64,000 nucleotides of DNA from Nitrospirota bacterium. Lineage in GTDB: Bacteria; Nitrospirota; Thermodesulfovibrionia; Thermodesulfovibrionales; Dissulfurispiraceae. Below the pieces are notes generated by a model. That model was not told the DNA's origin, searched no databases, and saw nothing but the letters and a program-made list of their open reading frames with translations. Below are positions 6,799 through 54,571 of this stretch, in pieces; the stretch's first letter is position 1, and the number at the start of each line of letters is the position of its first letter. The stretch covers positions 768,001 through 832,000 of the forward strand of contig CAVPZX010000002.1 of assembly GCA_963710375.1 (NCBI GenBank), given 5' to 3'. Made by a program: the position numbers and the translations under genes.

Positions 6799-6925
6799 AG
6801 TAATTTTTCCATGGACATTGTAATTAATCCATATTGATACCGTTTAACATTCCTCATAAGTCCTAATAAATAGTCCTAATAAATCAAAAAGATAACAAAT
6901 TATCTAGCATGGCATGATCCTTGCT
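6799..6925 (+). promoter_or_regulatory. Sigma54 promoter cassette, copy 1 (upstream of degP)
   Basis: UAS pair at 6799-6811 and 6819-6831; IHF-like AATCAAAAAGATA at 6882-6894; TGGCATGATCCTTGCT at 6910-6925 (GG-N10-GC). Confidence 0.8.
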
Positions 6926-7057
6926 TTCTTTATCGTTAGATGAAGAGAAGATAAGACATGCAACCACTGAAAAAGATGAGGAAAGAGTGAAGGTAAAAAC
7001 CGGGCATATTATTTTGGTAAAAACATGATTGTTCTGAATCGGCTTAACTCACTTTTT

Positions 7058-7101
7058 TGTGATGTATGTCACATTAGCAGCTCTGCTTTTCAATGTAAAA
7101 T
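7058..7101 (+). promoter_or_regulatory. Consensus CRP box with downstream -10 (class II-like geometry)
   Basis: TGTGA-TGTATG-TCACA at 7058-7073; TAAAAT at 7096-7101, 22 bp downstream. Confidence 0.7.
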
Positions 7102-7123
7102 GAACTCAAGGATGAGAAAAAGA

Positions 7124-8629
7124 ATGAAGTCGATAAGCAAAAAAGGGCTGACGGTGTGGGGATTGAATCAATCAATGGAAATTAATAGGACAACCTCGAT
7201 GCTCTTAGTTACGTGCTTGATCATCGTGGTGGTTTTAAGCCTCGGGGTAGAAGCATACGCCGACATGTCCGTGATATCTCAGGAATCCATTAACGTTCTT
7301 TCCAGGGTAAACCGCGCGAAGGCGGAGATTGCCGCTGTTGTAAAGCCGGCAGTTGTGAGCATATCGGCTACAAAAACCATTAGATCAAGAAAAGCGGCCA
7401 GTTCTTTCGTCAATGATCCGCACTTCAGAAGGTTCTCCGGCTATGGGTCCGGTCCTAATGCGCAGCCAAGACAATGTAATCAGCCAAATCTCGGCTCTGG
7501 TGTTATCGTGGATGCCAACGGTTACATAATGACGAACAACCATGTAATAAAGGATGCGGACGATATAAAAATAAGACTTGATGACAAGAGAGAATTCAAT
7601 GGAAAGGTGGTAGGGACAGACCCGGAAAGTGATCTTGCAGTGATTAAGATTGACACCACGCATCTCCCATTCCTGAAATGGGGAGACTCGGACAAATTGG
7701 AGGTGGGTGCGACTGTATTAGCTGTCGGCGATCCTTATGGTTTAAACCAGACGGTAACTTCAGGGATTGTTTGCGCCACCGGCAGGACCAATGTAGGCAT
7801 AGCAGATTACGAGGATTTCATACAAACCGATGCACCGATAAATCCCGGAAACTCCGGAGGCCCTCTGGTCAATGTCAGGGGTGAACTTGTGGGAATCAAT
7901 ACCGCTATTTTCAGTACAACGGGAGGATACCAGGGAATCGGGTTTGCTATTCCGGCCAGGGTTGCAAAAGTTGTGATGAAAGAGCTCCTCAGTAATGGAA
8001 AGGTCACCAGGGGATGGCTGGGCGTCTCTGTTCAGGCAGTGACCCCTGGACTCGCGAAGCTTTTCGGAATAAGGGACCAGCAAGGCGCTCTCGTGGGGGA
8101 CATCGTAGAAAATAGCCCTGTCGAGAAAGCCGGTATCCGGAGAGGAGATATAATCGTGCAATATGACGGGAAAAAGGTGCTAGACCCGTCAAACCTCAGA
8201 AATATGGTTGCTGATACGCCCCCGAACAAGGAAGTTGTGATACAGCTTCTTCGCGGCGGAAAACCTGAAACCGTGAGTGCTGAGGTTGTTGAGATGCCGG
8301 AAGAGACACAAATGCCGTTGGAAGCGTCTTCCGACACGCAAGCTAGTGTTTTCAGCGGTGAGAAAGTTCAAGGTATCACGCCTGAATTAAGGAAAGAACT
8401 TAATGTTCCGGACCGGATGAACGGGGTGATCGTGACGAATATCGAAGATGGAAGCGCTGCCGATAAGGCCTTGATGAGCAAAGATGTAATACTGGAGATC
8501 AACAGAAAGAAAATAGAGAACATCAATGATTACGAAGCGGCTGTTGCGGAGATCAAAGCGGGTCAGGATGTTCTCTTGATGGTTTACAGGAATAAGTCAA
8601 CATTGTTTGTTGCCTTGACTCCCATATAA
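7124..8629 (+). CDS. degP: DegP/DegQ (HtrA) periplasmic serine protease with two PDZ domains
   Basis: Catalytic motifs TNNHV, SDLAV and NPGNSGG; RGWLGV followed by two PDZ domains; signal peptide. Start is more likely 7124 or 7175 than 7025. Confidence 0.92.
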   Translation: MKSISKKGLTVWGLNQSMEINRTTSMLLVTCLIIVVVLSLGVEAYADMSVISQESINVLSRVNRAKAEIAAVVKPAVVSISATKTIRSRKAASSFVNDPHFRRFSGYGSGPNAQPRQCNQPNLGSGVIVDANGYIMTNNHVIKDADDIKIRLDDKREFNGKVVGTDPESDLAVIKIDTTHLPFLKWGDSDKLEVGATVLAVGDPYGLNQTVTSGIVCATGRTNVGIADYEDFIQTDAPINPGNSGGPLVNVRGELVGINTAIFSTTGGYQGIGFAIPARVAKVVMKELLSNGKVTRGWLGVSVQAVTPGLAKLFGIRDQQGALVGDIVENSPVEKAGIRRGDIIVQYDGKKVLDPSNLRNMVADTPPNKEVVIQLLRGGKPETVSAEVVEMPEETQMPLEASSDTQASVFSGEKVQGITPELRKELNVPDRMNGVIVTNIEDGSAADKALMSKDVILEINRKKIENINDYEAAVAEIKAGQDVLLMVYRNKSTLFVALTPI

Positions 8630-8648
8630 ACAAGAAAAACCGGACAAT

Positions 8649-10661
8649 TCATCTGCCGCCTGCACCTGACATCAGTATCTTGTCACGCAGCCGTTTTATC
8701 TTATCCCTGAGCTCCGCTGCACGCTCGAAATCGAGCTTCTTGGCAGCCTCTCTCATCTCCGATTCCAACTCCTTGACAGCATCCTCGTTCAGAGCGTATT
8801 CCGCTGTCTCTTCGGCAGCAGCAGCAACTGTATAATAGTCGGACTCGTATATCGAACCCAGTATGTCTTTAATCCTGCTTTTTATTGATTCCGGGGTAAT
8901 CTTCATTTTTTTATTGTAATCCCCCTGGAGTTTCCTTCTTCGCTCGGTCTCATCAATGGCCTTCTTCATGGAGCGTGTTATGGTATCGGCATAGAGGAGC
9001 ACCGCTCCATTGATGTTTCGTGCAGCACGGCCCGCAGTCTGGATCAATGAACGCTCGGACCTGAGAAATCCTTCTTTGTCTGCATCGAATATGGCAACAA
9101 GGGAAACCTCCGGAAGGTCCAGACCCTCTCTAAGCAGATTGACACCTATCAGGACATCAAAAACGCCCAGACGGAGGTCCCGCAGAATCTCTATTCTCTG
9201 GAGTGTGTCTATGTCGGAATGAAGATACCTGGCCCGGACACCGATTTCAGTATAATAATCGGTGAGGTCCTCAGCCATTTTCTTCGTGAGCGTGGTCACC
9301 AGCACCCGCTCTCCCTTTGCAACTCTTTTCCGTATCTCTCCCAGCAGGTCGTCAACCTGTCCGCCTGCAGGCCTGACTGTCATTTTAGGATCCATCAGAC
9401 CTGTCGGCCGGATGACCTGTTCTACCACTCTGCCCCCTGACTTGCCGATCTCGTAATTGCTTGGGGTTGCCGATACATATATGGCCTGGTTCATGCGGCG
9501 CTCGAACTCGTCAAACCTAAACGGCCTGTTGTCCAGAGCAGAAGGGAGCCGGAACCCGTAATCCACCAATGTTTGTTTTCTGGAGCGGTCTCCTTCGTAC
9601 ATGCCGCCTATCTGCGGAATAGTTGCATGCGATTCATCTATTATCATCAGGAAATCTCCTTTGGACGGTCCGCTGATCATATAATCGATCAACGTATAAG
9701 GGGGTTCGCCCGGGAGCCTGCCGCTAAGGTGTCTTGAATAGTTTTCAATGCCATGGCAATAGCCGAACTCTCTCAGCATTTCGAGATCGAAACGGGTTCG
9801 CTGCTCAATTCTCTGGGCAAAGCTGATCTCGCCCTCGTTCCTGAAAAACCTTGTACGTTCCTCGAGCTCATTCTCGATGCCTGTGAATGCTTTTTTCAAT
9901 TTTGCTTCAGGTGTTATCCAGTGGCTGTTCGGGTAGAGCGTCAGTTTATGCATCCTGTTTATCCGGTCACCTGTCAGAGTGTCGAACTCGTAAAGCGCTT
10001 CAATATCATCTCCGAAAAAATCTATCCTCACCGCCTTGTCCCGGGAAAATGCCGGATATACTTCAACCATGTCTCCGCGCACCCTGAAATTGCCACGCTT
10101 GAATTCGGCGTCTGACCGGACGTAAAGTATGTCCACAAGCTGCCGTAAAAGGTCATTCCTTTTGATGCTCATGCCCTCTTCAATAAATATGTGCATACTA
10201 AGATAGTCTTCGGGTGAGCCAATGCCGTAAATACATGAGACAGAAGCCACAACGATGACGTCGGTCCTTTCTAGTATTGACATCGTTGCTGAATGCCTGA
10301 GTCTGTCTATATCATCATTGATCATGGAATCTTTTTCTATATAGGTATCTGTGGACGGGATATAAGCTTCAGGCTGGTAATAATCATAGTAGCTTACGAA
10401 AAACTCCACTGCGTTCTCCGGAAACAGCTCTTTGAATTCTCCGTACAGCTGCGCTGCCAACGCCTTATTGTGAGCTATAATAAGAGCCGGTTTGTTGAGA
10501 TTGGCAATAACATGCGCAACAGTAAATGTCTTGCCCGAGCCGGTAACGCCGAGGAGGACCTGATGCCTGAGGTCCTTAATTACCCCTTCGGTCAGCTCAT
10601 CTATCGCCTTCGGCTGGTCTCCTTTGGGAGTGAAGCTCGTCTCTAGTTTAAATTCATCCAT
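8649..10661 (-). CDS. uvrB: Excinuclease ABC subunit B
   Basis: [22 protein letters not shown], and C-terminal UVR motif [11 protein letters not shown]. Confidence 0.98.
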
Positions 10662-10819
10662 GGGTTTATGCTAATATAAGTATACCAGTTGCTTTTGTGC
10701 TTAATGGTTTTACGGCGCATCCGGTAAAGCTGCTGTACATTTATTATAAATGAGTGCGGTATGTTTTCTCTAATACCCCCATGTCGATTACTTGACAGGA
10801 TTGAAGAGAGATTGACTGT

Positions 10820-12253
10820 ATGAAACGAGGATGTTTCAGGACTCCCACCCTTCCTATTCATGATATCCATGAAGAATGCGGCGTATTCGGCGTTTTTGAC
10901 CATCCTGAAGCAGCCAATCTCGCCTATCTGGGACTTTATGCCCTGCAGCACCGCGGCCAGGAAGGGGCAGGCATTTGCTCTTCCGACGGGAAGAACATTT
11001 ACATAGAAAAGGCGCTCGGCCTCGTCGCCGACATCTTCAGCGAGAAAAGGCTGAAACGACTGCCCGGTTCAATTGCCATAGGTCACAACCGGTATTCAAC
11101 TGCAGGCGGCGGAGGGATCAAGAATGTACAACCCCTCATAGCGAATTTCGCGCTGGGCTCCATAGCCCTGGCGCACAACGGAAACCTTGTCAACGCCGAA
11201 CAGGTAAGGTCAGGACTTGAGGCTGAAGGATCAATCTTCCAATCATCATCAGACAGCGAGGTGATCCTGCACCTGATCGCAAGGTCAAAGCAAGAGGACC
11301 CATACGAGCGCATTATTGAAGCGCTTCGCAGCGTAAGCGGAGCTTACAGCCTCCTGTTCCTAAGAGAATCAGAACTGATCGTTGCACGGGACCCCTTCGG
11401 CGTAAGGCCACTTTCTATCGGCACCGTGGACGGCGCATATGTTGTGGCCTCGGAGACCTGTGCATTTGACCTGATCGGCGCTGAATATATCAGGGATGTT
11501 GAACCCGGTGAATTGATCATAATTGACCGCAACGGCCTGCGTTCCCTGAGAGCGGTGCAAAGCACCAGAAAGGCCCATTGTGTTTTTGAGTTTATCTATT
11601 TTGCCCGGCCCGACAGCTATATTTTCAACCATTCATGCGTGAACACCGTGCGCAAAACTCTGGGCAAACAACTTGCGCTGGAATCCTATGTCGATGCCGA
11701 TATCGTAGTGCCTGTCCCTGATTCCGGGGTGCCTGCGGCGATCGGTTTTGCCGAGCAGTCAGGGATACCTTTTGATTTCGGTCTCATAAGAAACCATTAT
11801 ATAGGGAGAACCTTTATAGAGCCAAAACAGAGCATCCGCCATTTTGGCGTAAAAATAAAGCTCAACCCTGTGCGGGACCTTCTGCAAGGGAAAAGTGTGG
11901 TAGTGGTCGACGACTCCATTGTAAGGGGCACGACGAGCAAGAAAATAGTAAAAATGATCAGGGAGATCGGGGGCGCAAAAAAGGTTCATATGAGAATATG
12001 CTCCCCTCCGACAATTGGCCCCTGCTTTTATGGGATTGATACTCCGACGCGGTATGAACTTATCGCATCGAGCCACATGACCGAAGAGATAAGAAAATAT
12101 CTGACCGCTGACAGCCTTGCCTATATGAGTATAGATGGCTTAAAAAAAATCCTTCCTAATCCCCAGGATTTTTGCACTGCATGCTTTGATAACAAGTATC
12201 CTATAGAATTCCCGGGAAAGCTGCTCGAACAGATGGAATTGGCCTTCTCATGA
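10820..12253 (+). CDS. purF: Amidophosphoribosyltransferase
   Basis: Propeptide followed by EECGVFG; LQHRGQE; VDDSIVRGTT; Fe-S-type Cys motifs PCFYGID and CTAC. Confidence 0.97.
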   Translation: MKRGCFRTPTLPIHDIHEECGVFGVFDHPEAANLAYLGLYALQHRGQEGAGICSSDGKNIYIEKALGLVADIFSEKRLKRLPGSIAIGHNRYSTAGGGGIKNVQPLIANFALGSIALAHNGNLVNAEQVRSGLEAEGSIFQSSSDSEVILHLIARSKQEDPYERIIEALRSVSGAYSLLFLRESELIVARDPFGVRPLSIGTVDGAYVVASETCAFDLIGAEYIRDVEPGELIIIDRNGLRSLRAVQSTRKAHCVFEFIYFARPDSYIFNHSCVNTVRKTLGKQLALESYVDADIVVPVPDSGVPAAIGFAEQSGIPFDFGLIRNHYIGRTFIEPKQSIRHFGVKIKLNPVRDLLQGKSVVVVDDSIVRGTTSKKIVKMIREIGGAKKVHMRICSPPTIGPCFYGIDTPTRYELIASSHMTEEIRKYLTADSLAYMSIDGLKKILPNPQDFCTACFDNKYPIEFPGKLLEQMELAFS

Positions 12254-13380: not shown

Positions 13381-13443
13381 TCACATTCAGACAGCTTTGG
13401 GGCATAACAACAGGAAGTGGTAAGGAGCGGACCAGGTCAGGAC

Positions 13444-13758: not shown

Positions 13759-13762
13759 CTCA

Positions 13763-30254: not shown

Positions 30255-32316
30255 CTAAAACTCGACCTTGCCCTCTCCCTGCACCATTTTTGTAATGAAC
30301 TCGACAATTTCGGGATTGGCCAATGTCATAACATCGCCCACATCCGTGCCGTTGGAAATAGAGCCGAGTACTCTGCGCATGATCTTTCCTGAGCGCGTCT
30401 TCGGCATATCGGGCACAATCCAGACCTTTCTCGGTCTTGCAATAGCTCCGATTTCCGTGACAATGGCATTTGATATTTTCTTGGCAAGTTCCTCGCTTGC
30501 CTTGAGCCCGGGTTTCAAAGCAATATACAGATCAGGTTCTTTCCCTTTTATTTCATGTTTCACAGGAACAACTGCAGCTTCCGCGACTTCAGGAACAGTG
30601 AGCGCAGCAGACTCGATTTCCTTTGTCCCAAGTCTGTGTCCGGAAACATTGATAACATCGTCGATCCTGCCCAGGATGCGGACATACCCGTCAGCAGCCA
30701 CCACTGCGGCGTCACCCGCGAGATACGGCCAATCCCGCCAATCTTTACTCTTCGGGTTCTTGCAGTACCTTTCATAATACGTCTTAACGTAGCGGTCACG
30801 GTCGCCCCAGATAGTCTGGAAACTGCCGGGCCAGGGGTTCTGGATGCATATATTCCCCGCCTTGCCCGAGCCGGCCGGGACTACGACTCCGTCATTGTCA
30901 TAAACAATGGGGTGAATGCCGGGCACGCCTGGACCGGCGCTGCCTGGCTTCATCGGCTTTATAGCCGGTATGGTGCTGCAGAGGAACCCGCCGTTTTCTG
31001 TCTGCCACCAGGTATCTACGATAGCTGCCTCGTTCTTACCCACCTCGTGATAATACCACTTCCATACTTCAGGCTCGATAGGTTCTCCAACTGTAGTCAT
31101 ATGCTTGAAATGGTAATTATACTTCGCAGGCTCATCCGGACCTACCTTTCTCAGCGCCCTGATGGCGGTAGGCGCCGTATGGAAGATGTTGATATCAAGG
31201 TTCTGGGCAATCCGCCAGGGTCTGCCTGGGTCCGGATATGTCGGGACGCCTTCGTAAATAACACTTGAGGCGCACAATGCCAACGGGCCATAGACAATAT
31301 ATGAATGCCCGGTGATCCATCCGATATCGGCCATACACCAGTAAACATCTTCCGGATGGATGTCCTGTATATATTTTGATGTTCCGGTTACATAAGCAAG
31401 ATAACCGCCCGTGCTGTGCTGGCAACCTTTGGGCTTTCCGGTTGTGCCGCTGGTATACATCAGGAAAAGCGGCGCTTCGGCAGGCATCGGCACCGGATCA
31501 ATACGGGCGCCGTAATACTTCTTCAGCAGCTCGTTGACAAAGAAATCGCGGCCCTCCACCATAGGTGTCTTTGCAGAATATTTGCCTGGATAGCGCTGCC
31601 ATACCAATACCTTTTTAATCTTCTGGCCATCTTTTGCAGCGTCTGCAACAGCAATATCCGCTTTTTCCTTGTGATCAATGAGTCTGACCGCTCCTGTAAT
31701 AGGCGTCCATCGTTATAAGAAATTCGCTTCCTGAGTCGACGATCCTGTCCGCGCACGCCCTTCCGCTGAACCCGCCGAAGACCTGTGAATGGATAATGCC
31801 GAGCCTTGCGCATGCAAGCATTGTGATGGGCAGCTCAGCAACCATCGGCAAGTGCAGTGTCACCCTGTCCCCTGCCTTAAGGCCCAACTCATCTCTAAGA
31901 ATTGCCGCAAACTCGTTCACCCTGACATACAGTTCCTGATAGGTAACATGCTGTACTGCCTCACTCTCGTTTTCCGAGACAAAATGGATTGCCGTCTTGT
32001 TCTTGTTCTTGGCCAGGTGCCTGTCTATACAATTGTAGCTTGCATTGATCTTTCCTCCCACAAACCACTTCCAACATGGCGCGTCACTGGTATCAAGGGT
32101 TGTATGCCAATACTCGTACCAGGTCAGCAGATCGGCATATTCCTTGAAACAATTGGGAAAGTTCTTCAGCGCAAACCGATCGTAAACTGCCGGATCCGTC
32201 ACGTTCGCCTGAGCAATAAATTTTGCTGTGGGATAGAAAAACTGCTCTTCACCCCAATGCACCGCAATTTCAGCTTCAGATGTTTCAAGTACTTCTTTCT
32301 TGTTTTTTTCAGCCAC
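30255..32316 (-). CDS. acs: Acetyl-CoA synthetase (canonical motifs), +1 frameshift at ~31683
   Basis: YTSGTTGKPKG, VDTWWQTE and PKTRSGK motifs. The two ORF halves join if one base at 31680-31686 is removed; span is 2062 = 3n+1. Confidence 0.9.
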
Positions 32317-36019: not shown

Positions 36020-37366
36020 TCAGAATCTGTTAATCCCCCATCGTTTTCTCTTTTCCCATAAAGACTTTCTTGTGATGCCGAGCATATCTGCCAGTTGCTG
36101 TTCCGTACATTCATGCTGGTATCTTTGAATGACTGTCTTTGCATATTCTTCAATAGAAAGCCTCTCCTCCAGCACCTCCTGCATAAAAGGCCTCTTTGTT
36201 TTCACGTTGTCGGGCAGGTGTTCGGCACTTATAATGCCGTCATCAGCTATGAGAATGGCGCGTTCTATTATGTTCTGCAATTCTCTGATATTCCCCGGCC
36301 AGTTGTACTCAATGAGAAGTTGCAGCGTATCAGCTCCTATTTGCTTTAACGGCTTGCCCAAATCTCCGGAATATTTCTGGAAGAAATGTTTGACGAGAGG
36401 AGCTATATCCTCTCTTCTTTCTCTTAGGGGCGGCAACTTGATTGATATGACATTAATCCTGTAAAAGAGGTCCTCCCGGAACGCCCCCTCCTTTACAGCA
36501 GCATCAAGGTCCCTGTTCGTTGCACAAATAAAGCGGAGATCGATTTTGACGCTCTGTATTCCGCCGACCGGACGTACCTGATAATCCTCCAGAACTCTGA
36601 GCAGTTTTGACTGCAGCCCCATGCTCAAATTACCTATTTCATCGAGGAACACCGTGCCTCCATTGGCTTCTTCGAGTATCCCTTTTTTAAAGCTTGTTGC
36701 TCCGGTAAATGCCCCTTTGACATGACCGAAGAGTTCCGATTCCAGAAGGTTCTCAGGGATAGCGCTGCAGTTTATTGGAACAAATGGCTTGTCCGCTCTC
36801 TTACTGTTGAAGTGAATTGCCCGGGCAATCAATTCTTTGCCGGTGCCGGTTTCTCCGAGGAGGAGCACGTTGCTCTTCGCATCCGCAAACTTCTTTACCT
36901 CGTTGATGATTTTCTTTATTGCGGCGCTTTCCCCGATTATTCTGCTGAAATCATACTCTCTTTCCAGCTGTTTTCTAAGAAGAATATTCTCGCTTTTGAG
37001 TGCCTTCTGACTCAAGGCGTTTTTTACAATCTGCTTTATCTCCTCATGTATAATCGGCTTTACCACATAGTCATAGGTGCCGGCCCTGAGGGCCTCTATT
37101 GCAGTTTCGAGCGAGGCGTACGCAGTCATGATAACAACTAGTTGGTCGGGTATTCTTTCTTTTATAAGCTTCAGGAGCTCTATGCCGTTCATGCCGGGCA
37201 GAATAATATCGCTGATAATCAGACTGTAATATCCGTCCCCGAGTACGCCAAGGGCGGCCTCAGCACTTCCTGCCACATCAACTTCGTATCGCTCTCTTAA
37301 AAAAACCCTCTTAAGGGACTCACACAGAGTATCTTCATCCTCAACAATAAGTAATCTCTCAGCCAT
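36020..37366 (-). CDS. Sigma54-dependent NtrC-family response regulator (CbrB-like)
   Basis: Receiver domain, GETGTGKE, ESELFGHVKGAFTGA, FLDEIG, WPGNIREL and a Fis-type HTH. Confidence 0.93.
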   Translation of the reverse strand: MAERLLIVEDEDTLCESLKRVFLRERYEVDVAGSAEAALGVLGDGYYSLIISDIILPGMNGIELLKLIKERIPDQLVVIMTAYASLETAIEALRAGTYDYVVKPIIHEEIKQIVKNALSQKALKSENILLRKQLEREYDFSRIIGESAAIKKIINEVKKFADAKSNVLLLGETGTGKELIARAIHFNSKRADKPFVPINCSAIPENLLESELFGHVKGAFTGATSFKKGILEEANGGTVFLDEIGNLSMGLQSKLLRVLEDYQVRPVGGIQSVKIDLRFICATNRDLDAAVKEGAFREDLFYRINVISIKLPPLRERREDIAPLVKHFFQKYSGDLGKPLKQIGADTLQLLIEYNWPGNIRELQNIIERAILIADDGIISAEHLPDNVKTKRPFMQEVLEERLSIEEYAKTVIQRYQHECTEQQLADMLGITRKSLWEKRKRWGINRF

Positions 37367-40316
37367 TACTTTCCAGTGGAAGCCGTATCGTAAACGACGT
37401 TCCCTCTCCCTTTTTGCTTGAGAAATCAATAGTCCCTTTATGCTCCCTGATTATACCATAACAAATACTTAGACCCAGGCCGGTACCCTTGCCCAGCGGC
37501 TTCGTAGTAAAAAAAGGGTCAAATATTTTGTCCATTGCGTTTTCTTCAATACCCGGTCCAGTATCGGTAAAAACAATTGTTAAAAAAGCTCCGTCCTGCC
37601 TGGCAGTGATGACGAGGCTGCCTCCCTGCGGCATTGCATCAACCGCATTAATTATGAGATTAAGAAATACCTGTTGTATCTGGTCCGGATTAGCGAGTAT
37701 GCGCGGGACCTTCGATATATTTATAGTCAGCTTTATGTCCCTGAACCTCTTGTCGTATTTCACCAAGTTGAGAGTCCGTTCGAGAATATCGGGGATAGCG
37801 CATGCTGTTTTTTTCGTAGATGATATCCGTGCAAAATCTCCGAGGCTTCTCACTATGTTTGCGATTCTCTCAATATGGTTATTTATCGTTTTCAGCGATT
37901 CACCTCTAAACTCCTTTTCCTCAGGCGCGTCCATGTCCGGCGCGCTCAGCTCCTGCACGAGCGAAGAGATTGATGCGAGCGGATTGCCTATCTCATGGGA
38001 TATACCTGCAGTCAATTTTCCGATGCTGGCGAGCTTTGATGCCTGCTGCAGTTGCTCCTCCATCATTTGTTTCTCAGTGATATCCTCAAGAATGACCACA
38101 TAGCCTCCAGAAGGGTCCTTGAAGGGACTCATGTTTATCTTGAAGGTCAACTTTTCGCTGGTCTCGGCGAGCTCTTCATTTCCGTCATTCTTCAGCAGAG
38201 CATTTACCGGCAGCCAGGGCAGAAGGACCGCTATTGATTTGTTGAATGCCTCGGCCCTGGTTATGCCTGTAATCGCTGCCATCGACCTGTTCCAGTAATT
38301 CACTCTCAGAAGCACATCAACGGTAGCAATGCCGATTGGCAGACTTTCAATAATGTTTTCGCTGAATTCCTTGAGATAGGACAGCTCTTTATTGGCATCA
38401 GCCAATTCTTTGCGGGACAGCCTCAGGGTTTCAGTAATGCTTTTGATCGATTCTGAAAGCACTCCGCGTTCGTCTTCAGTCAGCGCCAGCTTATCTTCAA
38501 AAATAATTGCTGCCATGGAAGAACCGATTGCTCCCGCTAGAACTGTTTCAGCATCGTTCCTCAGTTCATAAATATCATGTGGGGTGAGTTCTCCGCGCTT
38601 TTTGTTCTTCTTCCGTAAAAAATTGGCGACAGCATTGCCCGCATCACTCCTGCCAAGGCACTGCGAAAGGACTTCCTCTATATCGTTAATGGTATATGAG
38701 CCCCCTCTCGCAATGTCTCTAGACTTTTCATAGGATTCAACAAAGATGAGGGACTGCAGTTCCTCCTCTTTCGTCTGGCGTGTAAACACCGATACCCCCA
38801 AATAAAACACCACGTTGGCAAGCATGCCCCAGAAGAGCGAATTGCCCCACTTGCCTAGGCCGCTGATACCGAACATGCTGTCGGGATTCAGCATCGTGGA
38901 ACCTGTCATTGCCGCAACAAGCCCGATATTTTTTACAATGCCCACTTCTATCAACGCAGGCATTATAAGGGTATAAAACCAGATGCTGAAGCCGGCTGCA
39001 AGCCCTGCTATAGCTCCTGCCTTGGTACCCCGCTTCCAGTAAAGGCCCAAAAAAAAGGCAGGGGCAAAAAGCGCCACTGCTTCAAATGATCGCAGCCCCA
39101 TATCCACAAGGCTGTAAAGCCCGCCCACAGAAGTAGTGTACCAATACCCTATGCAGATAATGGACATGATTACCAGTCGCTTAATATTCAGTATCACCGT
39201 AGGAAACCGGGGCGCGTCATGAAAATTAATAAACGCAGGCATAATGATGCTGTGCATAACCATAGTGCTTAATGCCAGAGTTTCGACAATAATCATGCTT
39301 GAGGCTGCGGAAAAACCTCCTATAAAAGCAAAAAGGGACAAGTACTTGGCGCCGTGTGTCAAAGGAAGGGTAAGCACAAAATAATCGGCCCCCTTTGCAT
39401 TGCCGGCTGTCAGTATGCCGCCTAAGGCTATAGGCAGCACAAAGACGTTTATCAACAGCAGATACAACGGGAAAAGCCATGCCGCCTTCCTTATATGATC
39501 TTCGTTGTAATTCTCCACCACTGCCATCTGAAATTGCCGTGGCAAAAACATTACGGCCATCATCGAAAGGAAAATAAGGGAAGACCATTCAAAATATCCG
39601 GTACCTGTACCCGGACCAAGAAGGAGAAGGGCTTTATAAGAGGACCCCTGAATCCTGTTTAATATGTCATCGGGTCCTTTAAAAAGGCTGAATGTGACAA
39701 AAATCCCTACAAAGATAAACGCAGCGAGTTTTACTATGGACTCAAATGCTATGGCGAAAACAAGGCCTACATGCCTTTCAGATGAATCAAGCCGTCGTGC
39801 CCCGAAAATAATGGCAAATACACCCAGAATAAAGGTGATGACCAACCCTGCTGCAACACTGCTGCCTGTATCTCCGGATATGATAGCGAAAGTGCCGAAG
39901 ATTGCCTTCATTTGCAGCCCGAGATATGGCGTAATACCAGCCACTGCAACAATAGTAACAAGGGCTGACAGAGCCAGCGATTTTCCGTAGCGCGCACCTA
40001 TGAAGTCCGATATAGTGGTAATCCTGTTGGCCTTTGCGGTCCTCACCACTTTCCTGAGCACGATCATCCATATGGACGCCATGAGGGTGGGACCCAAATA
40101 GGTGGTAAGGAATGAAAGCCCTGATGTGGCGGCCTTGCCTACACTGCCGTAAAATGTCCAGGAGGTGCAATAGACAGCAAGTGAAAGGGAATAAATATAA
40201 GGGTTATTTACAATGCTTTTCCCGGACTTCTCTTTCCGCTCCGCATAATAGGCAACAGCGAAGAGGAGCATGAGATAACATACTACAATAAGAAACAGGT
40301 TATAGGGAATAAACAC
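37359..40316 (-). CDS. SLC5-STAC-PAS histidine kinase (CbrA/CrbS family)
   Basis: YSLSLAVYCTSWTFYGSVG (SLC5 sensor); LAGAIGSSMA (STAC-like); PAS; H-box HEIGNPL; FFTTKPLGKGTGLGL. Confidence 0.92.
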   Translation of the reverse strand: MFIPYNLFLIVVCYLMLLFAVAYYAERKEKSGKSIVNNPYIYSLSLAVYCTSWTFYGSVGKAATSGLSFLTTYLGPTLMASIWMIVLRKVVRTAKANRITTISDFIGARYGKSLALSALVTIVAVAGITPYLGLQMKAIFGTFAIISGDTGSSVAAGLVITFILGVFAIIFGARRLDSSERHVGLVFAIAFESIVKLAAFIFVGIFVTFSLFKGPDDILNRIQGSSYKALLLLGPGTGTGYFEWSSLIFLSMMAVMFLPRQFQMAVVENYNEDHIRKAAWLFPLYLLLINVFVLPIALGGILTAGNAKGADYFVLTLPLTHGAKYLSLFAFIGGFSAASSMIIVETLALSTMVMHSIIMPAFINFHDAPRFPTVILNIKRLVIMSIICIGYWYTTSVGGLYSLVDMGLRSFEAVALFAPAFFLGLYWKRGTKAGAIAGLAAGFSIWFYTLIMPALIEVGIVKNIGLVAAMTGSTMLNPDSMFGISGLGKWGNSLFWGMLANVVFYLGVSVFTRQTKEEELQSLIFVESYEKSRDIARGGSYTINDIEEVLSQCLGRSDAGNAVANFLRKKNKKRGELTPHDIYELRNDAETVLAGAIGSSMAAIIFEDKLALTEDERGVLSESIKSITETLRLSRKELADANKELSYLKEFSENIIESLPIGIATVDVLLRVNYWNRSMAAITGITRAEAFNKSIAVLLPWLPVNALLKNDGNEELAETSEKLTFKINMSPFKDPSGGYVVILEDITEKQMMEEQLQQASKLASIGKLTAGISHEIGNPLASISSLVQELSAPDMDAPEEKEFRGESLKTINNHIERIANIVRSLGDFARISSTKKTACAIPDILERTLNLVKYDKRFRDIKLTINISKVPRILANPDQIQQVFLNLIINAVDAMPQGGSLVITARQDGAFLTIVFTDTGPGIEENAMDKIFDPFFTTKPLGKGTGLGLSICYGIIREHKGTIDFSSKKGEGTSFTIRLPLESNG

Positions 40317-40333: not shown

Positions 40334-40495
40334 TCAGAAGGCGCGGAAGCCTGTAACAGCCCCCAGGATAATAAAGACAAGCCAGAAGAGAAACAGGTAG
40401 GCTGCCACTCCTCTGCTAAAAATCTCGATAAACGGCCAGTTAAAGCCCAAAATGCCGACTATAAAAAGCATTATCCACAGCTCGGCCTTTTTCAA
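40334..40495 (-). CDS. Small two-TM protein (53 aa), CbrX-like; absent from the ORF track
   Basis: TTG start overlapping the gyrA stop; (M)[52 protein letters not shown]; ends 17 bp before the kinase start. Confidence 0.7.
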   Translation of the reverse strand: MKKAELWIMLFIVGILGFNWPFIEIFSRGVAAYLFLFWLVFIILGAVTGFRAF

Positions 40496-42904
40496 TCTTC
40501 GGCTACCCTTCCAATACTTACGATCCGGTCTTCAGCCTCCAGGTCCATAAGTTTAACTCCCTGAGTATTTCTTCCAAGCACCGAAATATTTCCCGCAACA
40601 GTCCTTATTAATTTTCCGGCGTTAGTGATAAGGACCACCTCATCCTCATTTTTTACCTGGAGGAGACCGACCGCATTGCCGCCTCTCTCCACTACCTTAA
40701 TTGAAATAACTCCTTTCCCGCCGCGGCCATGAACAGGATATTCCCCTATTTCGGTCCTCTTGCCAAGGCCTTTTTCCGTTACCGTTAAAAGGGTCATTCT
40801 TTCCTCGACAACATTGGCGGAAACAACTTCGTCGTCCTTACCCAGCCGGATGCCTATAACACCTCTGGCAGTCCGCCCGACTGACCTGACATCATCTTCC
40901 TCAAATCTGGCGGCAAGCCCGCGCTTAGTGCCGATAATAATGTCATTATTCCCAGAGGTCTTTTTAACGGCAATCAGACTCGTCGCCTTCGTCCAATGTC
41001 ACAGCTATTATACCTTTTGCCCTTGGGTTGCTGTATTCGCTGAGCTTTGTCTTTTTCACAATGCCGGCTTTGGTGAACATAACCAGATACCCATCGCTAA
41101 AATCTTTGACATTCAGAGCGGTCGTAATCCGTTCTCCATCTGAAAGAGAGAGGACGTTTACAAGCGCCTTACCCTTTGCCGCCCTACCAGCCTCTGGTAT
41201 CTGGTATATCTTAAGCCAATAGAGCCTGCCATTGTTGCTGAAAAACAGCATGTAGTCGTGAGTAGACCCTATAAAGAGCTGTTCAACAAAATCCTCTTCC
41301 CTGGTCTCCATCCCTGTCAGCCCCTTGCCTCCCCGGCGCTGGCTTCTGTATATCGACAGAGGATTCCGTTTGATGTACCCATTATGGGACACTGTTATAA
41401 CCATCTCCTCTTCTGTGATGAGGTCTTCTATGGTCAGATCAGCCGTCTCAGGGACAATATCTGTTCTTCTCTCGTCAGCGTATTTGTTTTTGACCTCGAC
41501 AAGCTCGTCTTTAACGATTTTCCATACGAGGGCTTCACTCCCGAGGATTGCCTTCAACCTCTCAATCTCTTTCAGCGTGTCTTCGTAATCCTTTATGATC
41601 TTATCACGCTCCAGCCCGGTCAGGCGCTGCAGGCGCATTTCCAGTATCGCCTGGGCCTGGATCTGGGACAGCGGGTATTTAGTCATTAGTCCTGTTCTGG
41701 CATCATCAGGGGTCTTTGACCGTCTGATAAGAGTGATGATTTCATCGAGGTGGTCCAGCGCTATCTTGAGACCTTCGAGGATATGTGCTTTTTCTTCAGC
41801 CTTCCTCAATTCGAAGCGCGTCCTGAAGAGTATTACATTCCTGCGGTGCTGAAGAAAATTGTCCAGCATATCCTTAAGCGTCAGGACAAGGGGCTTCCCT
41901 GCCACAATCGCAAGCATAATGACGCCGAACGTGGATTCCATTGCCGTGTGCTTGTAGAGATTATTGAGGATTACCTGAGCCATCTCTCCGCGCTTTATTT
42001 CCATAACTATCCTTATCCCGTCCCTGTCGGACTCGTCCCTGATATCAGAGATGCCCTCAATGCGCTTCTCGCGGACCAGCTCAGCGATCTTTTCAATAAG
42101 ACGCGCCTTGTTGACCTGGTATGGAAGTTCGCTGACAATTATGCTTTCGTTGCCGCGGGCTTCGCGTTCTACCAATACCTTTGCGCGAACTTTGATCAAA
42201 CCCCTGCCCGTGGTATAGGCACTGACAATGCCCCGGGTCCCGTGAATAATCGCGCCGGTAGGAAAATCAGGACCTTTTACGGCTGCCATCAACTCATTCA
42301 CCGTGACCTGGGGGTTCTCAAGCAGCATAATCAAGCCGTCCACAACCTCCCCGAGATTATGGGGCGGTATATTGGTAGCCATACCGACGGCGATACCAGC
42401 AGAGCCGTTGACAAGGAGATTGGGGACCCTTGTCGGAAGCACTACAGGCTCTTCAGTCGTTTCATCGAAATTAGGGGTAAAAGCAACTGTTTCCTTATCT
42501 ATATCGGCAAGGAGTTCTTCTGAAATCTTTGCCAGCCGCGCTTCGGTATACCGGTATGCAGCAGCAGGGTCGCCGTCAATAGAGCCGAAATTGCCCTGTC
42601 CGTCCACAAGTACGTACCTCATATTAAAATCCTGTGCCAGACGCACCAGAGCGTCATAGACCGCAGAGTCGCCATGGGGGTGGTATTTTTTCAAAACTTC
42701 GCCTACAACACCCGCGCATTTTGAGTATTTCTTATTGGGGAGAAGCCCTTCCCTGAACATGGCATAGAGTATTCTCCTCTGTACCGGCTTCAGGCCGTCC
42801 CGTACTTCAGGCAACGCCCTGCCGATGATTACGCTCATGGCGTAATCAAGATAGCTGACTTTCATCTCTTCTTCTATGCTGATCGACACCTTAGGCTGCA
42901 ACAT
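40492..42904 (-). CDS. gyrA: DNA gyrase subunit A, +1 frameshift at ~40978 (probably a sequence error)
   Basis: [19 protein letters not shown] and GyrA box QRRGGKG; span is 2413 = 3n+1. Confidence 0.96.
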
Positions 42905-44481: not shown

Positions 44482-44483
44482 AT

Positions 44484-49347: not shown

Positions 49348-49477
49348 GAAGAAAGAGAATACTCAGAGTAAAAACAAACTGGCCCACTACCGCTAAGTTA
49401 CCTCCCTATCGCTCGATCTGGGATTAGAGTAGATAAGCTATAAAACCCTGCTGACAAAAAATAAAGATTATAATTTG

Positions 49478-49590
49478 TGGCATTTTTCCATAGATATTGG
49501 AATTAATTCATATGCACATTGGATGATATTCCTCAAAACCTCAATAAATCAAAAAGATAATACGTTGTGCCACCTGGCACAGCCTTTGCT
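49478..49590 (+). promoter_or_regulatory. Sigma54 promoter cassette, copy 2 (upstream of secretin)
   Basis: UAS pair at 49478-49490 and 49498-49510; AATCAAAAAGATA at 49547-49559; TGGCACAGCCTTTGCT at 49575-49590. Confidence 0.85.
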
Positions 49591-49685
49591 ACACAATTGA
49601 CCCAAAGGGGATAAGAAATGCAACTACGGATATATGCGCCTCTAAGCAAGAAAAAGGGGAATAAAATGATAATAGGCGGCGGGTC

Positions 49686-51476
49686 ATGAGTCATGGGTCA
49701 TGGATTGTCGATAAAAATAAATCTATAGCCCTTAGCCTGTTGCCTATTGCCTATAGCGCTTCCTCTGCCGTCTCACGTAGAAGAGCATGCCTAAAGGCAG
49801 CTACTTCCGGTACTTTTGGGGCTGTGGTTAAAATTTGTGTTTTGATCCTTTTCCTGGCGCTGGCTGGTGGATGTGCAGGCAGTAAGCAGGAAGCTAAAGC
49901 TCCTTTTCAGGATAAGGAGGTAAACTGGGAAAAACTTGCGGAAATATCAAAAGGTCATTCACCTTCTCCGATTAAGAAAACCATTGATATTCATGATTAC
50001 CAGCAACAAATTGAGAAGGAAAGTTCTGGGGTCAAGGAAAAACCGCTGCCTTCCAAAAAGGTAAGCCTGAAAATGCGGAATGCTGATCTCAAATCCATAT
50101 TACGCGCTTTGGCCCGGGCAACGGACATTAATCTTTTTGTGAAGGATGACATCAAAGTGATGACGAGTGTTGATTTTGAGGCAGTGCCGTGGGACGAGGT
50201 GTTCAACAGCCTGCTGAAAGCTTATAGCCTGACCTATGTTTGGGAGGGTGATATCCTCCGCGTCTTATCTAATGATGATCTGGAGCAGCAGCTTAAGGCG
50301 GAAACAACCAGGGGAAAGCTCGAAACCCAGGAATTGCAGGACATGGCTTTGAGGCCGCTCTCCACCGTAGTAGTCCCGATAGACTACGCTGATACGAAAT
50401 CTCTAAGGGACGACCTGCAGGAGTTTCTGACAAAAGATAAGGACACAAAGGTAGCTCGCGGTACTGTCCGGGTGGACCAGCACAGCAACTCACTTATCAT
50501 ACAGGCATCGCACGAGGACATAGAGAAAATGCTGCCTGTAATAGAGAAAATAGACAAGCCGACGCCTCAAATACTTATCCGTGCCAATATTGTAGAGACT
50601 ACAAAGGATGTGGCGAGAAACCTCGGCATCCAGTGGGGCGGCATCATGAAGGCCGGCAATCTTTGGTTGACGCCTGGAGGAGGAACATCCTCTACTACCG
50701 GCACTTCAAGTACATCAAGCTCTTCCACCGGCCCTGCAAATCCTGTTACCACAGGCACCTCTGCTGTCACCAGCGGAGGCTATTCTCCCACCTCAGGGTC
50801 AACCGGGCTGAGCGGGCAGGGCATGGGCGTAAGTTTCCCTGTTTCATCAACTGCCATCAACGCTGCAGGCGGTGTTGGAGCACTCGGACTTATGTGGGGG
50901 ACTATAGGCGGCACCATTCTTGAGACCCAGCTGCAGGCCCTTCAAACTGAAGGAAAAGCCAACATAATATCGAGCCCATCCCTGACAACAGTTGACAACG
51001 AGAAGGCATTTACCGAAAGCGGCACGACAGTGCCCTATGTAACATATACGTTATCAGGCGGAAGTTCTACCCCGACCGTAAACTTTGTTGATGCTGTTCT
51101 CAGGCTTGAGATAACCCCGCACGTTATTGGCGGCAAGAATCTTAAAATGATTATTGTTGTGAAAAAGAATGATGTAGACACCTCACAAACAGTACAGGGG
51201 AACCCTTTCATAATCAAAAAACAGACCGAAACAACGCTGATTGTGGAGAATGGCGAGACTATTGTCATAGCAGGACTGACCAGTCTAAATCATACCCATA
51301 ATACGAATGGAGTGCCATTGCTTCAGGACGTTCCAGTGCTGGGAAATCTTTTCAAGGGAGACTCAAAGGAAGATTCCTCGGACCAAGTTCTCATATTCAT
51401 TACCCCTTACATTTTACCGAGATCCGGCGACTTGGCCGAAGCGAGTAATGATGGTCATGCAACGCCGAAGGAATAA
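49686..51476 (+). CDS. pilQ: Type IV pilus secretin (PilQ/MshL-like), probable lipoprotein
   Basis: LALAGGC lipobox; VPWDEVF, IDKPTPQILIRANIVE and GVPLLQDVPVLGNLF motifs. Start is uncertain. Confidence 0.88.
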   Translation: MSHGSWIVDKNKSIALSLLPIAYSASSAVSRRRACLKAATSGTFGAVVKICVLILFLALAGGCAGSKQEAKAPFQDKEVNWEKLAEISKGHSPSPIKKTIDIHDYQQQIEKESSGVKEKPLPSKKVSLKMRNADLKSILRALARATDINLFVKDDIKVMTSVDFEAVPWDEVFNSLLKAYSLTYVWEGDILRVLSNDDLEQQLKAETTRGKLETQELQDMALRPLSTVVVPIDYADTKSLRDDLQEFLTKDKDTKVARGTVRVDQHSNSLIIQASHEDIEKMLPVIEKIDKPTPQILIRANIVETTKDVARNLGIQWGGIMKAGNLWLTPGGGTSSTTGTSSTSSSSTGPANPVTTGTSAVTSGGYSPTSGSTGLSGQGMGVSFPVSSTAINAAGGVGALGLMWGTIGGTILETQLQALQTEGKANIISSPSLTTVDNEKAFTESGTTVPYVTYTLSGGSSTPTVNFVDAVLRLEITPHVIGGKNLKMIIVVKKNDVDTSQTVQGNPFIIKKQTETTLIVENGETIVIAGLTSLNHTHNTNGVPLLQDVPVLGNLFKGDSKEDSSDQVLIFITPYILPRSGDLAEASNDGHATPKE

Positions 51477-52689
51477 GTGATCATGGACTATTTCAGGATT
51501 CTGAATCTTAAAAGGGAACCTTTTTCCAATACCCCTGACCCCGAACTGTTTTATCCGTCACGCAATCACGTGGAATGTTTGCAGAGGATCGAAATGGCCA
51601 TTCGTCTCAAGCGGGGGTTGAACGTAGTAATCGCAGAGGTCGGAACAGGAAAAACGACTTTGTGCAGGCAGACTCATCCAGCAGATTTCTACAGCAGAGG
51701 GAAATGAATTGATAGATCTGCACCTCATACTGGATCCATCCTTCTCCAGTTCCAGTGAATTCCTTTCAGTTATAGCAGGGTGTTTTGGCCTGATCCCGCA
51801 CGGCGAAAACATCATTGACCGGAGCGATTGGCAACTGAAGGAATCGATCAAGAATTACCTTTTATCAAAGGGAGTGGAAGAGGGGAAAATAGTGGCACTT
51901 CTGATAGATGAGGGCCAAAAACTACCGGATTTTTGCCTTGAAATATTGCGCGAGTTTCTTAATTGTGAAACCAATGACAGCAAACTCCTCCAGATAGTGA
52001 TTTTCGCCCAAAATGAATTCAAGGAACAAATTAACGCGCAGGCCAATTTTGCAGATCGGATCAATTTGTGTTATTCCCTGACTCCGTTCGGTTTCAGGGA
52101 AACCTGCAGAATGATAAAGTACCGCATCAACGAAACGAGCGTGAATGGCGCAGGCCGGGTGCTGTTTACTTTGCCGGGACTGTTTGCCGTTTACAGGGTT
52201 ACGGCAGGCTACCCCCGCTCCATCAATATGCTTTGTCATCATGTAATGCTCGCGCTAATAATTCAGAACCGTGTCAAGGCTGGGTGGTCCCTGGTACGCT
52301 CCTGCGCCGGCAGGCTCGCCATCAAACGGCGGAGGCCGGTCAATCTGCGGTTGGCGTTCATGGTCACAATACTAATGGTGTCGTTCTCATTTCTCGCATT
52401 TGCCTATTATGAACCTTTATTGAAAACAGCCTCATCGATAACAGGACTTTTTCAGGCAGTGGCTGAGGACCAGCTCGCCGTCAACTCAAGGCCGCAACCA
52501 GATCCCTCTGAATCAGGCGAAAGAAAAAACGCACCGTCCGTTCCCTGGCAATGGTTCATGGAAAAAGGCCGGCCCCCGGCGATAAAATCAGTTTTCCAGA
52601 CAGTGCCGGAGCAACCGCTCGCCGTCAACTCAAGGCCGCAACCAGATCCCTCTGAATCAGGAGATAAGAATGCGGAGGACAGACTGTGA
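51477..52689 (+). CDS. ExeA/MshM-like AAA ATPase, +1 frameshift at ~51672
   Basis: REPFSNTPDPELFY, Walker A EVGTGKTT, Walker B LIDEGQ, GYPRSINMLC and a C-terminal TM; span is 1213 = 3n+1. Confidence 0.85.
52473..52661 (+). repeat. Exact 45-bp direct repeat, two copies 144 bp apart
   Basis: gctcgccgtcaactcaaggccgcaaccagatccctctgaatcagg at 52473-52517 and 52617-52661 (encodes LAVNSRPQPDPSESG). Confidence 0.9.
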
Positions 52690-54389
52690 TTACCAAGCAA
52701 CGATTGGGAGAAATGCTGGTCGAGTCCGATCTTCTGACCGAGAATCAGCTTGAAAAAGCATTGGCCGGTCAAAAAAAGGAAGGGGTCAAGCTCGGACAGT
52801 ATCTTATAAGGCAGTCCATTGTTTCGGAAATGCAGATCGGCGACCTGCTCTGCAGACAACTGAAGATAGGCAAGTACCATCCGGACCAATTTCCGATAGA
52901 TATGGGTCTTTCCGGCGTTATTCCCTTTGAGCTGGCCCAGAAATATCAGGTTGCCCCTCTGCTGAAAAGGGGTCGCCTCCTCACAATAGCAATGGTTGAC
53001 CCCCTTGACATCACCGCGATGGACTCTATCGAGGCAAGCTCAAACTGCGAGGTGGAGCCGGTCGTCTGCACAGAAACAGAGCTGACGAACCTGCACAGGA
53101 GCATATACTCTGCACAAACTGGGCTGGAAGGCGTTGTGGAAGGCATCGAAGGTGAAGATTTTGCCTTTGAAAGGGCGGTAGACCAGCCTGAGGATATTCA
53201 GGTCGAAGCGGCACAGAATATGGCGCTAAATACTCCTGTCGTTATACGACTGGTGAACTCCATTTTTGCCAGTGCTGTTCAGGAGCGGGCCAGTGATATT
53301 CATATAAGCCCTCAGCAGAACGGAGTGCAGGTCAGATTCAGGATCGATGGGCGGCTCCACAGCATGCCGGCTCCACCCAAGTCGATGTTTCCAGCAGTGG
53401 TGGCCCGCATCAAGATTCTGTCTGATATGGATATAACACAATCGAGAATCCCTTTGGACGGGCGCTTCTCGCTGAAGCTGGGCAGCAGGCTGATCAACGT
53501 GCGTGTTTCTACTGTTCCCACTATTTACGGTGAGAACCTTGTCATGAGACTTCTGGATACCAGTTCCGGTATTTTCACCCTCGACCGTCTCGGAATGTCG
53601 GCTACTGACGTGGCAAGGATAAAGAGTATTATTCATAAACCATACGGAATGATCCTGAGCACCGGCCCCACCGGCAGCGGGAAGACCTCCAGTTTATACG
53701 CCATTCTGCAGGAGATCAACGAGCCGCATGCGCACATCATCACTCTCGAAGATCCCGTGGAGTACAAGATCGATACAATCCGCCAGATCCAATTGAATAT
53801 AAAAGCCGGCATGACCTTTGCGGGGGGTCTCAGGGCGATCCTTCGCCAGGACCCGGATGTCATCATGGTCGGGGAGATCCGCGATTCAGAGACAGCCTCC
53901 ATTGCGGTCAGGGCAGCACAGACAGGACACCGGCTGCTGAGCACCTTGCACACCAATGATGCTGCCGGGGCCATTTCCAGGCTCATTGATATGGGCATAG
54001 AGCCGTTCCTTGTCTCGTCGGTCCTATTGGTATCATTTGCCCAGAGACTTGTCCGAACCATCTGCCCTTACTGTAAGGAGGAATATACTCCTCCGATGAA
54101 GGTCCTCACTTCCTGGGGTCTCGATCGGGTGAAAGACGCGGTCTTTATGCATGGAAGGGGGTGCCAGCAGTGCCTTAATACAGGATACAAAGGAAGGACA
54201 GCCATTTTCGAGGTCCTCGTGAACAATGATAATATACAGGACATGATCCTGAAAAAAGCATCCGCGCATGAGATAGCCCACGAGGCTGTCTCCTCCGGCA
54301 TGATGACAACTCTTAAACAAAACGCTGCAGACAAAGTCGCCAGGGGCATTACCACGCTTGAAGAAGCGCAAGCAGTGGTGATGGCTTAA
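52686..54389 (+). CDS. pilB: Pilus assembly ATPase PilB/MshE with an N-terminal MshEN-like motif
   Basis: RLGEMLV...KLGQYLI N-terminus; ASDIHI, TGPTGSGKT, LRQDPDVIMVGEIRD and a tetra-Cys motif. Confidence 0.92.
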   Translation: MITKQRLGEMLVESDLLTENQLEKALAGQKKEGVKLGQYLIRQSIVSEMQIGDLLCRQLKIGKYHPDQFPIDMGLSGVIPFELAQKYQVAPLLKRGRLLTIAMVDPLDITAMDSIEASSNCEVEPVVCTETELTNLHRSIYSAQTGLEGVVEGIEGEDFAFERAVDQPEDIQVEAAQNMALNTPVVIRLVNSIFASAVQERASDIHISPQQNGVQVRFRIDGRLHSMPAPPKSMFPAVVARIKILSDMDITQSRIPLDGRFSLKLGSRLINVRVSTVPTIYGENLVMRLLDTSSGIFTLDRLGMSATDVARIKSIIHKPYGMILSTGPTGSGKTSSLYAILQEINEPHAHIITLEDPVEYKIDTIRQIQLNIKAGMTFAGGLRAILRQDPDVIMVGEIRDSETASIAVRAAQTGHRLLSTLHTNDAAGAISRLIDMGIEPFLVSSVLLVSFAQRLVRTICPYCKEEYTPPMKVLTSWGLDRVKDAVFMHGRGCQQCLNTGYKGRTAIFEVLVNNDNIQDMILKKASAHEIAHEAVSSGMMTTLKQNAADKVARGITTLEEAQAVVMA

Positions 54390-54457
54390 GACGCGTTATA
54401 GTGTTGTATCAAAAAGTGCTATACTGCCTTTTTTTGTTCGGTCATTAATTGCAAATA

Positions 54458-54571
54458 TGTAATTTTTCCATAGACATTGGAATTAATCCATTTCCACGCT
54501 GTATCACGTTCCTCGGAAATCCCAATAAACCAAAAAGATAATATATTGTCTTGCCTGGCATAATCCTTGCT
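54458..54571 (+). promoter_or_regulatory. Sigma54 promoter cassette, copy 3 (upstream of pilC)
   Basis: UAS pair at 54458-54470 and 54478-54490; AACCAAAAAGATA at 54528-54540; TGGCATAATCCTTGCT at 54556-54571. Confidence 0.85.

Follow-up and report, generated by a model that had tools for sequence, protein, structure and literature searches.

In the genome of an uncultured Nitrospirota bacterium (GenBank assembly GCA_963710375.1), a sigma-54-type promoter cassette of approximately 115 bases is present in 27 intergenic copies. Three of these copies are in the 64,000-nt stretch analysed here (contig CAVPZX010000002.1, positions 768,001 to 832,000; hereafter the window), before degP, a pilus secretin gene and a pilus platform gene. 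It is probable, judging from the sequences, that the cassette is a complete enhancer, integration host factor (IHF)-like and promoter unit that was copied from a promoter between an activator gene and fliL, that it has been kept by selection, and that it would bring a set of chemosensory and motility genes, as well as degP and two pilus genes, under one predicted activator. Positions given without a contig are those of the window. The source genome is referred to as G000 and its congeners as G001 to G009, with C and L numbers for contigs and loci.

A genome-wide family of cassettes

A sequence pattern identified 22 copies in G000, and an nhmmer profile built from those 22 identified 27. All 27 match at E<=4e-10, whereas the next match falls to E 0.04; in the reversed genome there is a single match, at E 4.5. 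A profile scan of the genome had been called for in the original prediction, which was made from the window alone; with this clear score gap, the three window copies are part of a family of 27 and not a product of chance. Twenty-four copies are outside the window, one of them 151 bases to its left (C2:767849, minus strand, before tpsB). Mean pairwise identity of the 27 copies is 75 %, and no pair exceeds 87 %. Copy 3 of the window, for example, is 78–86 % identical to the other copies over 100–131 nt, mostly at least 80 %.

All 27 copies are intergenic, and 26 face a long co-oriented open reading frame (ORF; binomial 2e-7 against 0.5). The remaining copy faces a 52-codon ORF and is the sole copy with a broken GG. 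Rather than being scattered, the copies respect gene starts and orientation, in keeping with the original prediction. Back-to-back copies are present at C2:332682 (−) and C2:332929 (+), in locus L018, before divergent genes. The −24/−12 box has GG in 26 of the 27 copies and GC in all 27, at the correct spacing, and cassette copies make up 25 of the genome's 44 strict TGGCAY-N5-TTGC sites. The genome has one copy of rpoN, and 24 full-length Sigma54_activat domains of bacterial enhancer-binding proteins (bEBPs) are found among 29 matches, supporting the proposed sigma-54 architecture.

The likeness of the copies extends to the spacers between the motifs. Across 55 spacer columns there is 67 % pairwise identity among the copies, versus 28 % among 17 other sigma-54-like promoters of the genome, and identity of the cassette spacers to their own consensus is 80 %. 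Promoters with the same pair of upstream activating sequences (UAS1 and UAS2) and different spacers exist at G000 C2:214013, G004 L136 and G014 L124, so that spacer sequence is evidently free to change, and its similarity among the cassettes indicates common descent. These independent promoters are also what speaks for an ordinary regulon, in which the binding sites were gained separately at each promoter and the likeness is due to selection on every base. However, they demonstrate that spacers can differ, yet those of the cassettes have stayed close to one consensus, and independent gain is contradicted by the co-copied flanks of the donor, which include a coding-sequence relic, and by the empty orthologous sites described below. 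This explanation is considered very improbable.

Within the cassette, mismatches to the consensus are found at 1/108 positions in GG and GC, 14/351 in UAS2 and 22/351 in the IHF-like block, versus 288/1473 in the spacers. The low level of change in the −24/−12 box and the proximal UAS likely points to selection. UAS2 is present in all 27 copies, at 78–80 bp from GG in 24 of them, and the distance from the IHF-like block to GG is a constant 30 bp in 27/27. There are three large indels upstream of the IHF-like block, of −10, +12 and +13 bp, each approximately one helical turn, although these are three cases only. The tree of the copies is star-like, with 3 of 41 inner branches well supported, giving no copying order. 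Spacer divergence from the consensus (~0.20) is approximately half of the fourfold-site uvrB distance to G003 (0.34) and G005 (0.30), and it is therefore likely that the burst of copying dates from around the split from these two genomes.

Window copies, orthologous sites and the probable donor locus

The three window cassettes align colinearly. Each consists of two near-palindromic 13-mers with starts 20 bp apart, an IHF-like 13-mer and GG-N10-GC, and the features around them are as follows.

6799–6924, + strand: cassette copy 1 (UAS1 6799–6811, UAS2 6819–6831, 13-bp tandem duplication 6860–6885, IHF-like 13-mer 6881–6893, GG 6911–6912, GC 6923–6924)
6929–7042, + strand: 3′ extension common to copy 1 and nine other copies; the first ~45 nt resemble a fliL leader
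7025–8629, + strand: degP/htrA (Do-family protease), first gene after copy 1; TIGR02037 over cut-off
49364–49391, − strand: remnant terminal repeat of an unrelated family of ~170-bp MITEs (miniature inverted-repeat transposable elements)
49431–49474, + strand: 44-bp relic of the 3′ end of the bEBP gene preceding fliL; 88.6 % identical, other bEBP genes there ~72–73 %
49478–49589, + strand: cassette copy 2 (UAS1 49478–49490, UAS2 49498–49510, IHF-like 13-mer 49546–49558, GG 49576–49577, GC 49588–49589)
49686–51476, + strand: pilus secretin gene; TIGR02515 over cut-off
54390–54582, + strand: 193-nt insert where the assembly ATPase gene adjoins the platform gene; the corresponding gap measures 3 nt in G001, 6 nt in G005 and 103 nt in G003
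54458–54570, + strand: cassette copy 3 (UAS1 54458–54470, UAS2 54478–54490, IHF-like 13-mer 54527–54539, GG 54557–54558, GC 54569–54570)
54583–56324, + strand: genes behind copy 3, a pilC/gspF-type platform gene (T2SSF, 54583–55800) and an N-methyl pilin gene (55902–56324)

The three blocks are where the original prediction had placed them, the UAS pairs are as given there, and the downstream block common to copies 1 and 2 is present. The predicted distances between UAS1 and GG also hold when counted from the last base of UAS1, being 100, 86 and 87 bp in copies 1, 2 and 3; copy 1 is longer because of its 13-bp tandem duplication. Likewise, the gene identities given there, a Do-family HtrA, a secretin, a T2SSF platform protein and an N-methyl pilin, are confirmed. 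Sigma-54 transcripts start approximately 12 nt after the GC. Transcription from copies 1, 2 and 3 would be expected to begin near 6936, 49601 and 54582, the last of which is one base ahead of the platform-gene ATG and would make the mRNA of that gene nearly leaderless. Similarity of the secretin to its congeners begins only near 49826, so its true start is likely to be downstream of the one in the ORF call. Public contigs match portions of copies 2 and 3 unchanged, with X5 spanning copy 2, X6 the left junction of copy 3 and X3 its right junction. Contigs X3 and X5 have a one-base difference at 51672, hinting at assembly errors of the kind that may account for several genes that are apparently split into two ORFs, encoding acetyl-CoA synthetase, GyrA, a methyl-accepting chemotaxis protein (MCP) and a PAS kinase (30255–32316 and 40492–42904; L012, L016); these are possibly assembly frameshifts. 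The pilus cluster encodes an MshEN-domain ATPase and an ExeA-like AAA protein, and in this resembles MSHA-type systems. A second pilQ-like gene is present elsewhere in G000.

In the family, 14 of 67 other genomes have any match to the cassette. Nine congeners have one to five matches each, those in G002 and G007 being only weak and non-homologous. Among the copies compared for synteny, 10 have both flanks syntenic in at least one congener; eight of these sites are empty in the congeners and two are filled (fliL and apbE–MCP). The ATPase–platform and pilP–secretin sites are each empty in 3/3 congeners, copy 2 being inside a stretch of ~450 nt that is missing from G001, G003 and G005, and the fliA–HEAT site is empty in 4/4. 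Also empty are the motA, kinase–cheV, pilM/PilZ, ilvE/GT2 and glgP–MCP sites. It is likely that the cassette sites were gained rather than lost. In the original prediction, sigma-54 control of the secretin and platform genes was set apart from the usual PilR–pilA pattern; both pilus insertions are absent in the three congeners with the cluster, so that this predicted control is a lineage-specific rewiring and not a conserved alternative.

At the glgP-linked MCP gene, the orthologues in G005 and G001 have a c-di-GMP-I riboswitch, whereas at the G000 locus the riboswitch is missing and the cassette is present. No syntenic congener was found for the cheY locus, the divergent pair or the PBP–kinase locus. 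At the cheB–kinase and AMP-ligase–PBP loci the congener neighbours differ, with no cassette seen there. The nearest homologues of degP, in G006 and G007, are without a cassette, but are in other contexts. In G000, degP forms a block with genes for a TpsA-like adhesin, TpsB and a Crp-family regulator (406–8629; L021), and G006 has a related tps–degP block without cassettes.

The one shared old position of the cassette has a REC-AAA-HTH bEBP gene on one side and a stand-alone fliL on the other. In 8/8 genomes with a bEBP homologue of at least 64 % identity, the UAS pair follows this orthologue; among 31 more distant homologue loci it is present at three. Traces of this position are found beside the copies. 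The 3′ end of the bEBP gene is retained as the 44-bp relic at the secretin copy, and as 36 bp at a copy in G008 whose locus has no such gene. The AT-rich 5′ lead common to the copies matches the last codons of the bEBP gene (G005 and G008), and at the other end the 3′ extension begins with sequence like that of fliL leaders. Neither the bEBP orthologue nor a real cassette is present in G002 or G007. The promoter between the bEBP gene and fliL is therefore the likely donor. Together, spacer homology, empty sites and the donor relic bear out the earlier suggestion that the cassette was copied as a unit.

The activator, which the original prediction had left without a name, now has a best candidate. 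Adjacency and co-occurrence point to the REC-AAA-HTH bEBP encoded at C5:492035–493450, the closest relatives of which are Nitrospirota records. The bEBP gene in the window (36020–37429) was rejected as the source of the activator; it is just upstream of its own sigma-54-like site (35837), without such a UAS. Following what is generally held for sigma-54 promoters, the phosphorylated REC-AAA-HTH protein would bind the palindromic 13-mers at approximately −79 and −99 from GG, an IHF-like protein would bend the DNA at −30, and sigma-54 polymerase would start approximately 12 nt after GC.

Several observations do not fit readily with this interpretation. UAS1 is kept no better than the spacers (63/351, p 0.55) and is unrecognisable in two copies; in all such comparisons the p-values overstate, since the motif regions were defined with the alignment in view and the copies share ancestry. 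The IHF-like block is one base off the IHF consensus, and among the four HU/IHF-family genes in G000 the best IHF-beta match scores 105.7 bits versus a family cut-off of 119.95. In G001, which is 88 % complete, there are four copies and the activator orthologue was not found. The non-fliL copies of G009 are 76–79 % identical to the G000 consensus, versus 64 % for its own fliL promoter; this pattern is not explained by simple vertical descent and suggests possible transfer between species. Finally, the fliK and flgF-like promoters, which are core flagellar promoters, have no cassette or UAS, on which ground a role as flagellar master regulator was rejected.

Target genes and the spread of the copies

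Targets were classed from the first three co-oriented genes behind each copy. Fourteen copies have chemotaxis or flagellar targets (nine MCP loci, PilZ/YcgR, fliL, motAB, cheV and HEAT–cheR). Other signalling targets are four sensor kinases, one hemerythrin and one cNMP-AAA protein, and the remaining seven are the secretin, the platform protein, degP, tpsB, a glycosyltransferase, an unknown protein and a small ORF. Half of the MCP loci (9/18) are at most 5 kb downstream of a copy (3e-11). The flanking coding sequences, including degP, secretin, platform protein, fliL, motA, cheV, GT2 and tpsB genes, among others, are non-paralogous. A dedicated circuit for pilus assembly and DegP, as in the original prediction, is not supported as the main story, as these are only 3/27 targets in a mostly chemosensory and motility set. 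The pilus genes and degP are a small part of a predicted, lineage-specific chemosensory regulon.

Ten metagenome matches were found, nine from a sister population (92–97 % nucleotide identity) and one to a fliL locus at 83 %. The sister population has five sites in common with G000, plus one that was not found in G000. At cheB, the gene directly after the −12 box encodes an MCP in the sister population versus a PAS kinase in G000, due either to a swap or to independent insertions. This difference would suit an explanation in which the cassette spread mainly as a passenger and joint of moving signalling modules (promoter plus MCP, kinase or HD-GYP gene) that were duplicated or transferred and recombined at the cassette, with promoter-only inserts as leftovers. 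Further support comes from L320, where the cassette and a small gene are at a rearrangement point, from the three loci without a syntenic congener, and from the copies in G001 and G009, which precede HD-GYP, CheD or MCP genes and match the G000 consensus more closely than the fliL promoters of G004, G006 and G009 do. However, no cargo is left between the native genes at pilB–pilC, pilP–secretin, fliA–HEAT, ilvE/GT2, cheV, pilM/PilZ and glgP–MCP, and the MCPs behind the copies carry different sensor domains. Spread mainly by carriage on signalling modules is unlikely. The block of sequence 3′ of the cassette was also considered as the separate right end of a cargo element, which was rejected; in G000 it is found only directly behind cassettes (10/10 matches at E<1). 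One sister-population contig has a short match to this block after a small gene.

The ends of the cassette bear on whether it could be a short selfish repeat of a MITE-like or REP-like kind that was moved by a transposase and has incidental or tolerated promoter activity. The lineage-specific burst and star-like tree are as such a repeat might leave them, G000 contains one Y1 transposase-family gene and MITE families that look active, and the gene ends concerned are prone to insertion, the corresponding junctions in congeners being taken up by MITEs and short-unit hairpins. Against this, there is no exact inverted match of at least six bases within 25 nt of both consensus ends, and inspection by eye of junctions filled in one genome and empty in another, where the congeners are only ~85–90 % identical, showed no target duplication, whereas a MITE of ~170 bp in this genome has 28-bp terminal repeats and ~9-bp target duplications (19 near-full copies, e.g. 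C2:488563–488732). The ends are ragged, the flanks being nested and variable with subsets of copies sharing longer 5′ or 3′ extensions, and orientation and targets are strongly biased. In addition, the −24/−12 box is nearly invariant, the copies have diverged to the extent given above, and neither a conserved RNA fold nor an Rfam match was found. A selfish repeat is accordingly rated as improbable.

Other origins were also rejected. Rfam has no matches in the window and none in the G000 loci scanned, and the consensus RNA fold is −3.2 kcal/mol with 0/7 pairs covarying, on which ground an RNA gene or riboswitch was rejected. For a phage origin, there are no exact-pattern matches in viral contigs, although with one strict pattern this is a weak test. 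Carriage by the MITE was not supported, since among the rows listed its remnants are beside a few copies and at the donor locus, and not beside most copies; the MITE and the cassette are read as both favouring AT-rich gene ends. G000 is also rich in a further MITE-like family, the terminal repeat of which is different. Hairpin-like tracts of 6–9-bp tandem units are present in the window at 49680–49757, 57680–57810 and 58180–58220, both intergenic and inside a TPR gene, and similar tracts are found in G003 at junctions that hold a cassette in G000.

The favoured interpretation, copying of the bEBP–fliL promoter as a unit, would involve recombination-type copy-and-paste with ragged ends, by microhomology or ectopic repair, and no transposase of its own. 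Most copies would come from one burst that followed the split from the closest congeners, in part off secondary copies; the nested shared extensions are as expected from copies of copies. Later, copies may have acted as crossover joints that swap the downstream gene. A bolder proposal is that the complete sigma-54 enhancer-promoter is itself the mobile unit, by a route that does not need terminal repeats. In one species, a burst of such movement would have assembled the chemosensory regulon with its 27 promoters, broken up operons and put the cassette in place of a c-di-GMP riboswitch, and signalling genes would still be exchanged at the cassette. This is put forward tentatively, as a possibility with the balance against it.

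The genome contains other repeats and sigma-54-like sites. A second, unrelated family of sigma-54-like promoter regions is present at C2:168558–168687, C2:617737–617865 and C3:152679–152833 (~86 % over 130 bp), with a partial copy at C3:150292–150340, and C3:146969 and C3:146038 resemble a third repeated sigma-54-like pair. Sigma-54-like sites also precede ORFs at C5:119023 and C5:127480, the N-termini of which resemble NifB and NifH, suggesting nitrogen fixation genes. A ~2-kb segment of a hybrid histidine-kinase gene (L026:5036–7026, on C4 of G000) is found in ~11 other places at 87–96 % identity.

Relation to known promoter repeats and regulons

Putative mobile promoters are regions that lie upstream of non-paralogous genes and yet resemble one another within a genome, and that move by a mechanism described as unknown; most families are pairs, averaging 92 % identity (PMC3575422). 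The cassette falls within their definition (at least 80 % identity over at least 50 nt upstream, non-paralogous flanking genes). It differs from those described (PMC3575422) in having 27 copies at a lower mean identity, a whole enhancer–IHF–sigma-54 module, a traced donor, empty sites and signs of selection. Correia elements, ERIC and REPIN are named among the promoter-bearing MITEs and REP-type repeats (PMC3575422). These are likewise short, non-coding, multicopy intergenic elements able to supply promoters, but the cassette is without terminal inverted repeats, visible target duplication or fixed ends and derives from a host promoter.

According to the parts of the reports available, the PeSL cassettes of T4-type phages combine a sigma-70-like promoter with a terminator stem-loop and are clustered in variable regions (PMC2839356, PMC4122927). 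As described there, they too are repeated promoter cassettes in which recombination between copies shuffles the genes behind, a process that may also have produced the one difference seen here at cheB. In contrast, the present cassette is chromosomal, dispersed and predicted to be activator-dependent, with a sigma-54 box, no conserved hairpin and no exact-pattern match in viral contigs. In the portions seen of the work on Desulfovibrio (PMC4641369) and Geobacter (PMC2577667), flagellar, chemotaxis and pilus operons are under sigma-54, and in Desulfovibrio a single bEBP, DVU1063, controls a dozen flagellar operons (PMC4641369). The control of motility, chemotaxis and pilus genes is similar here. 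As far as those portions go, the earlier regulons are made up of shared binding motifs rather than whole promoters related by descent; the term 'duplicat' is absent from the Desulfovibrio main text (PMC4641369). Core flagellar operons are outside the present set. A literature search, with most subscription journals outside its reach, found no account of this element, nor of any sigma-54 enhancer-promoter family dispersed in many copies. Promoter reuse is already known; what is unusual here is the copy number, the complete module, the traceable donor and the empty sites.

The organism is uncultured and functions are inferred from sequence alone. The case bears on how a bacterial regulator can acquire targets by the dozen. 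Each sigma-54 target requires activator sites, a bending site and a −24/−12 box in phase, which would be hard to evolve base by base. In this genome, more than half of the strict sigma-54 sites (25/44) trace to one ancestral promoter. One small clade offers a likely donor locus, orthologous sites both with and without the cassette, a riboswitch replaced by it and a signal of selection, and regulon growth by the copying of whole promoters is therefore directly testable.

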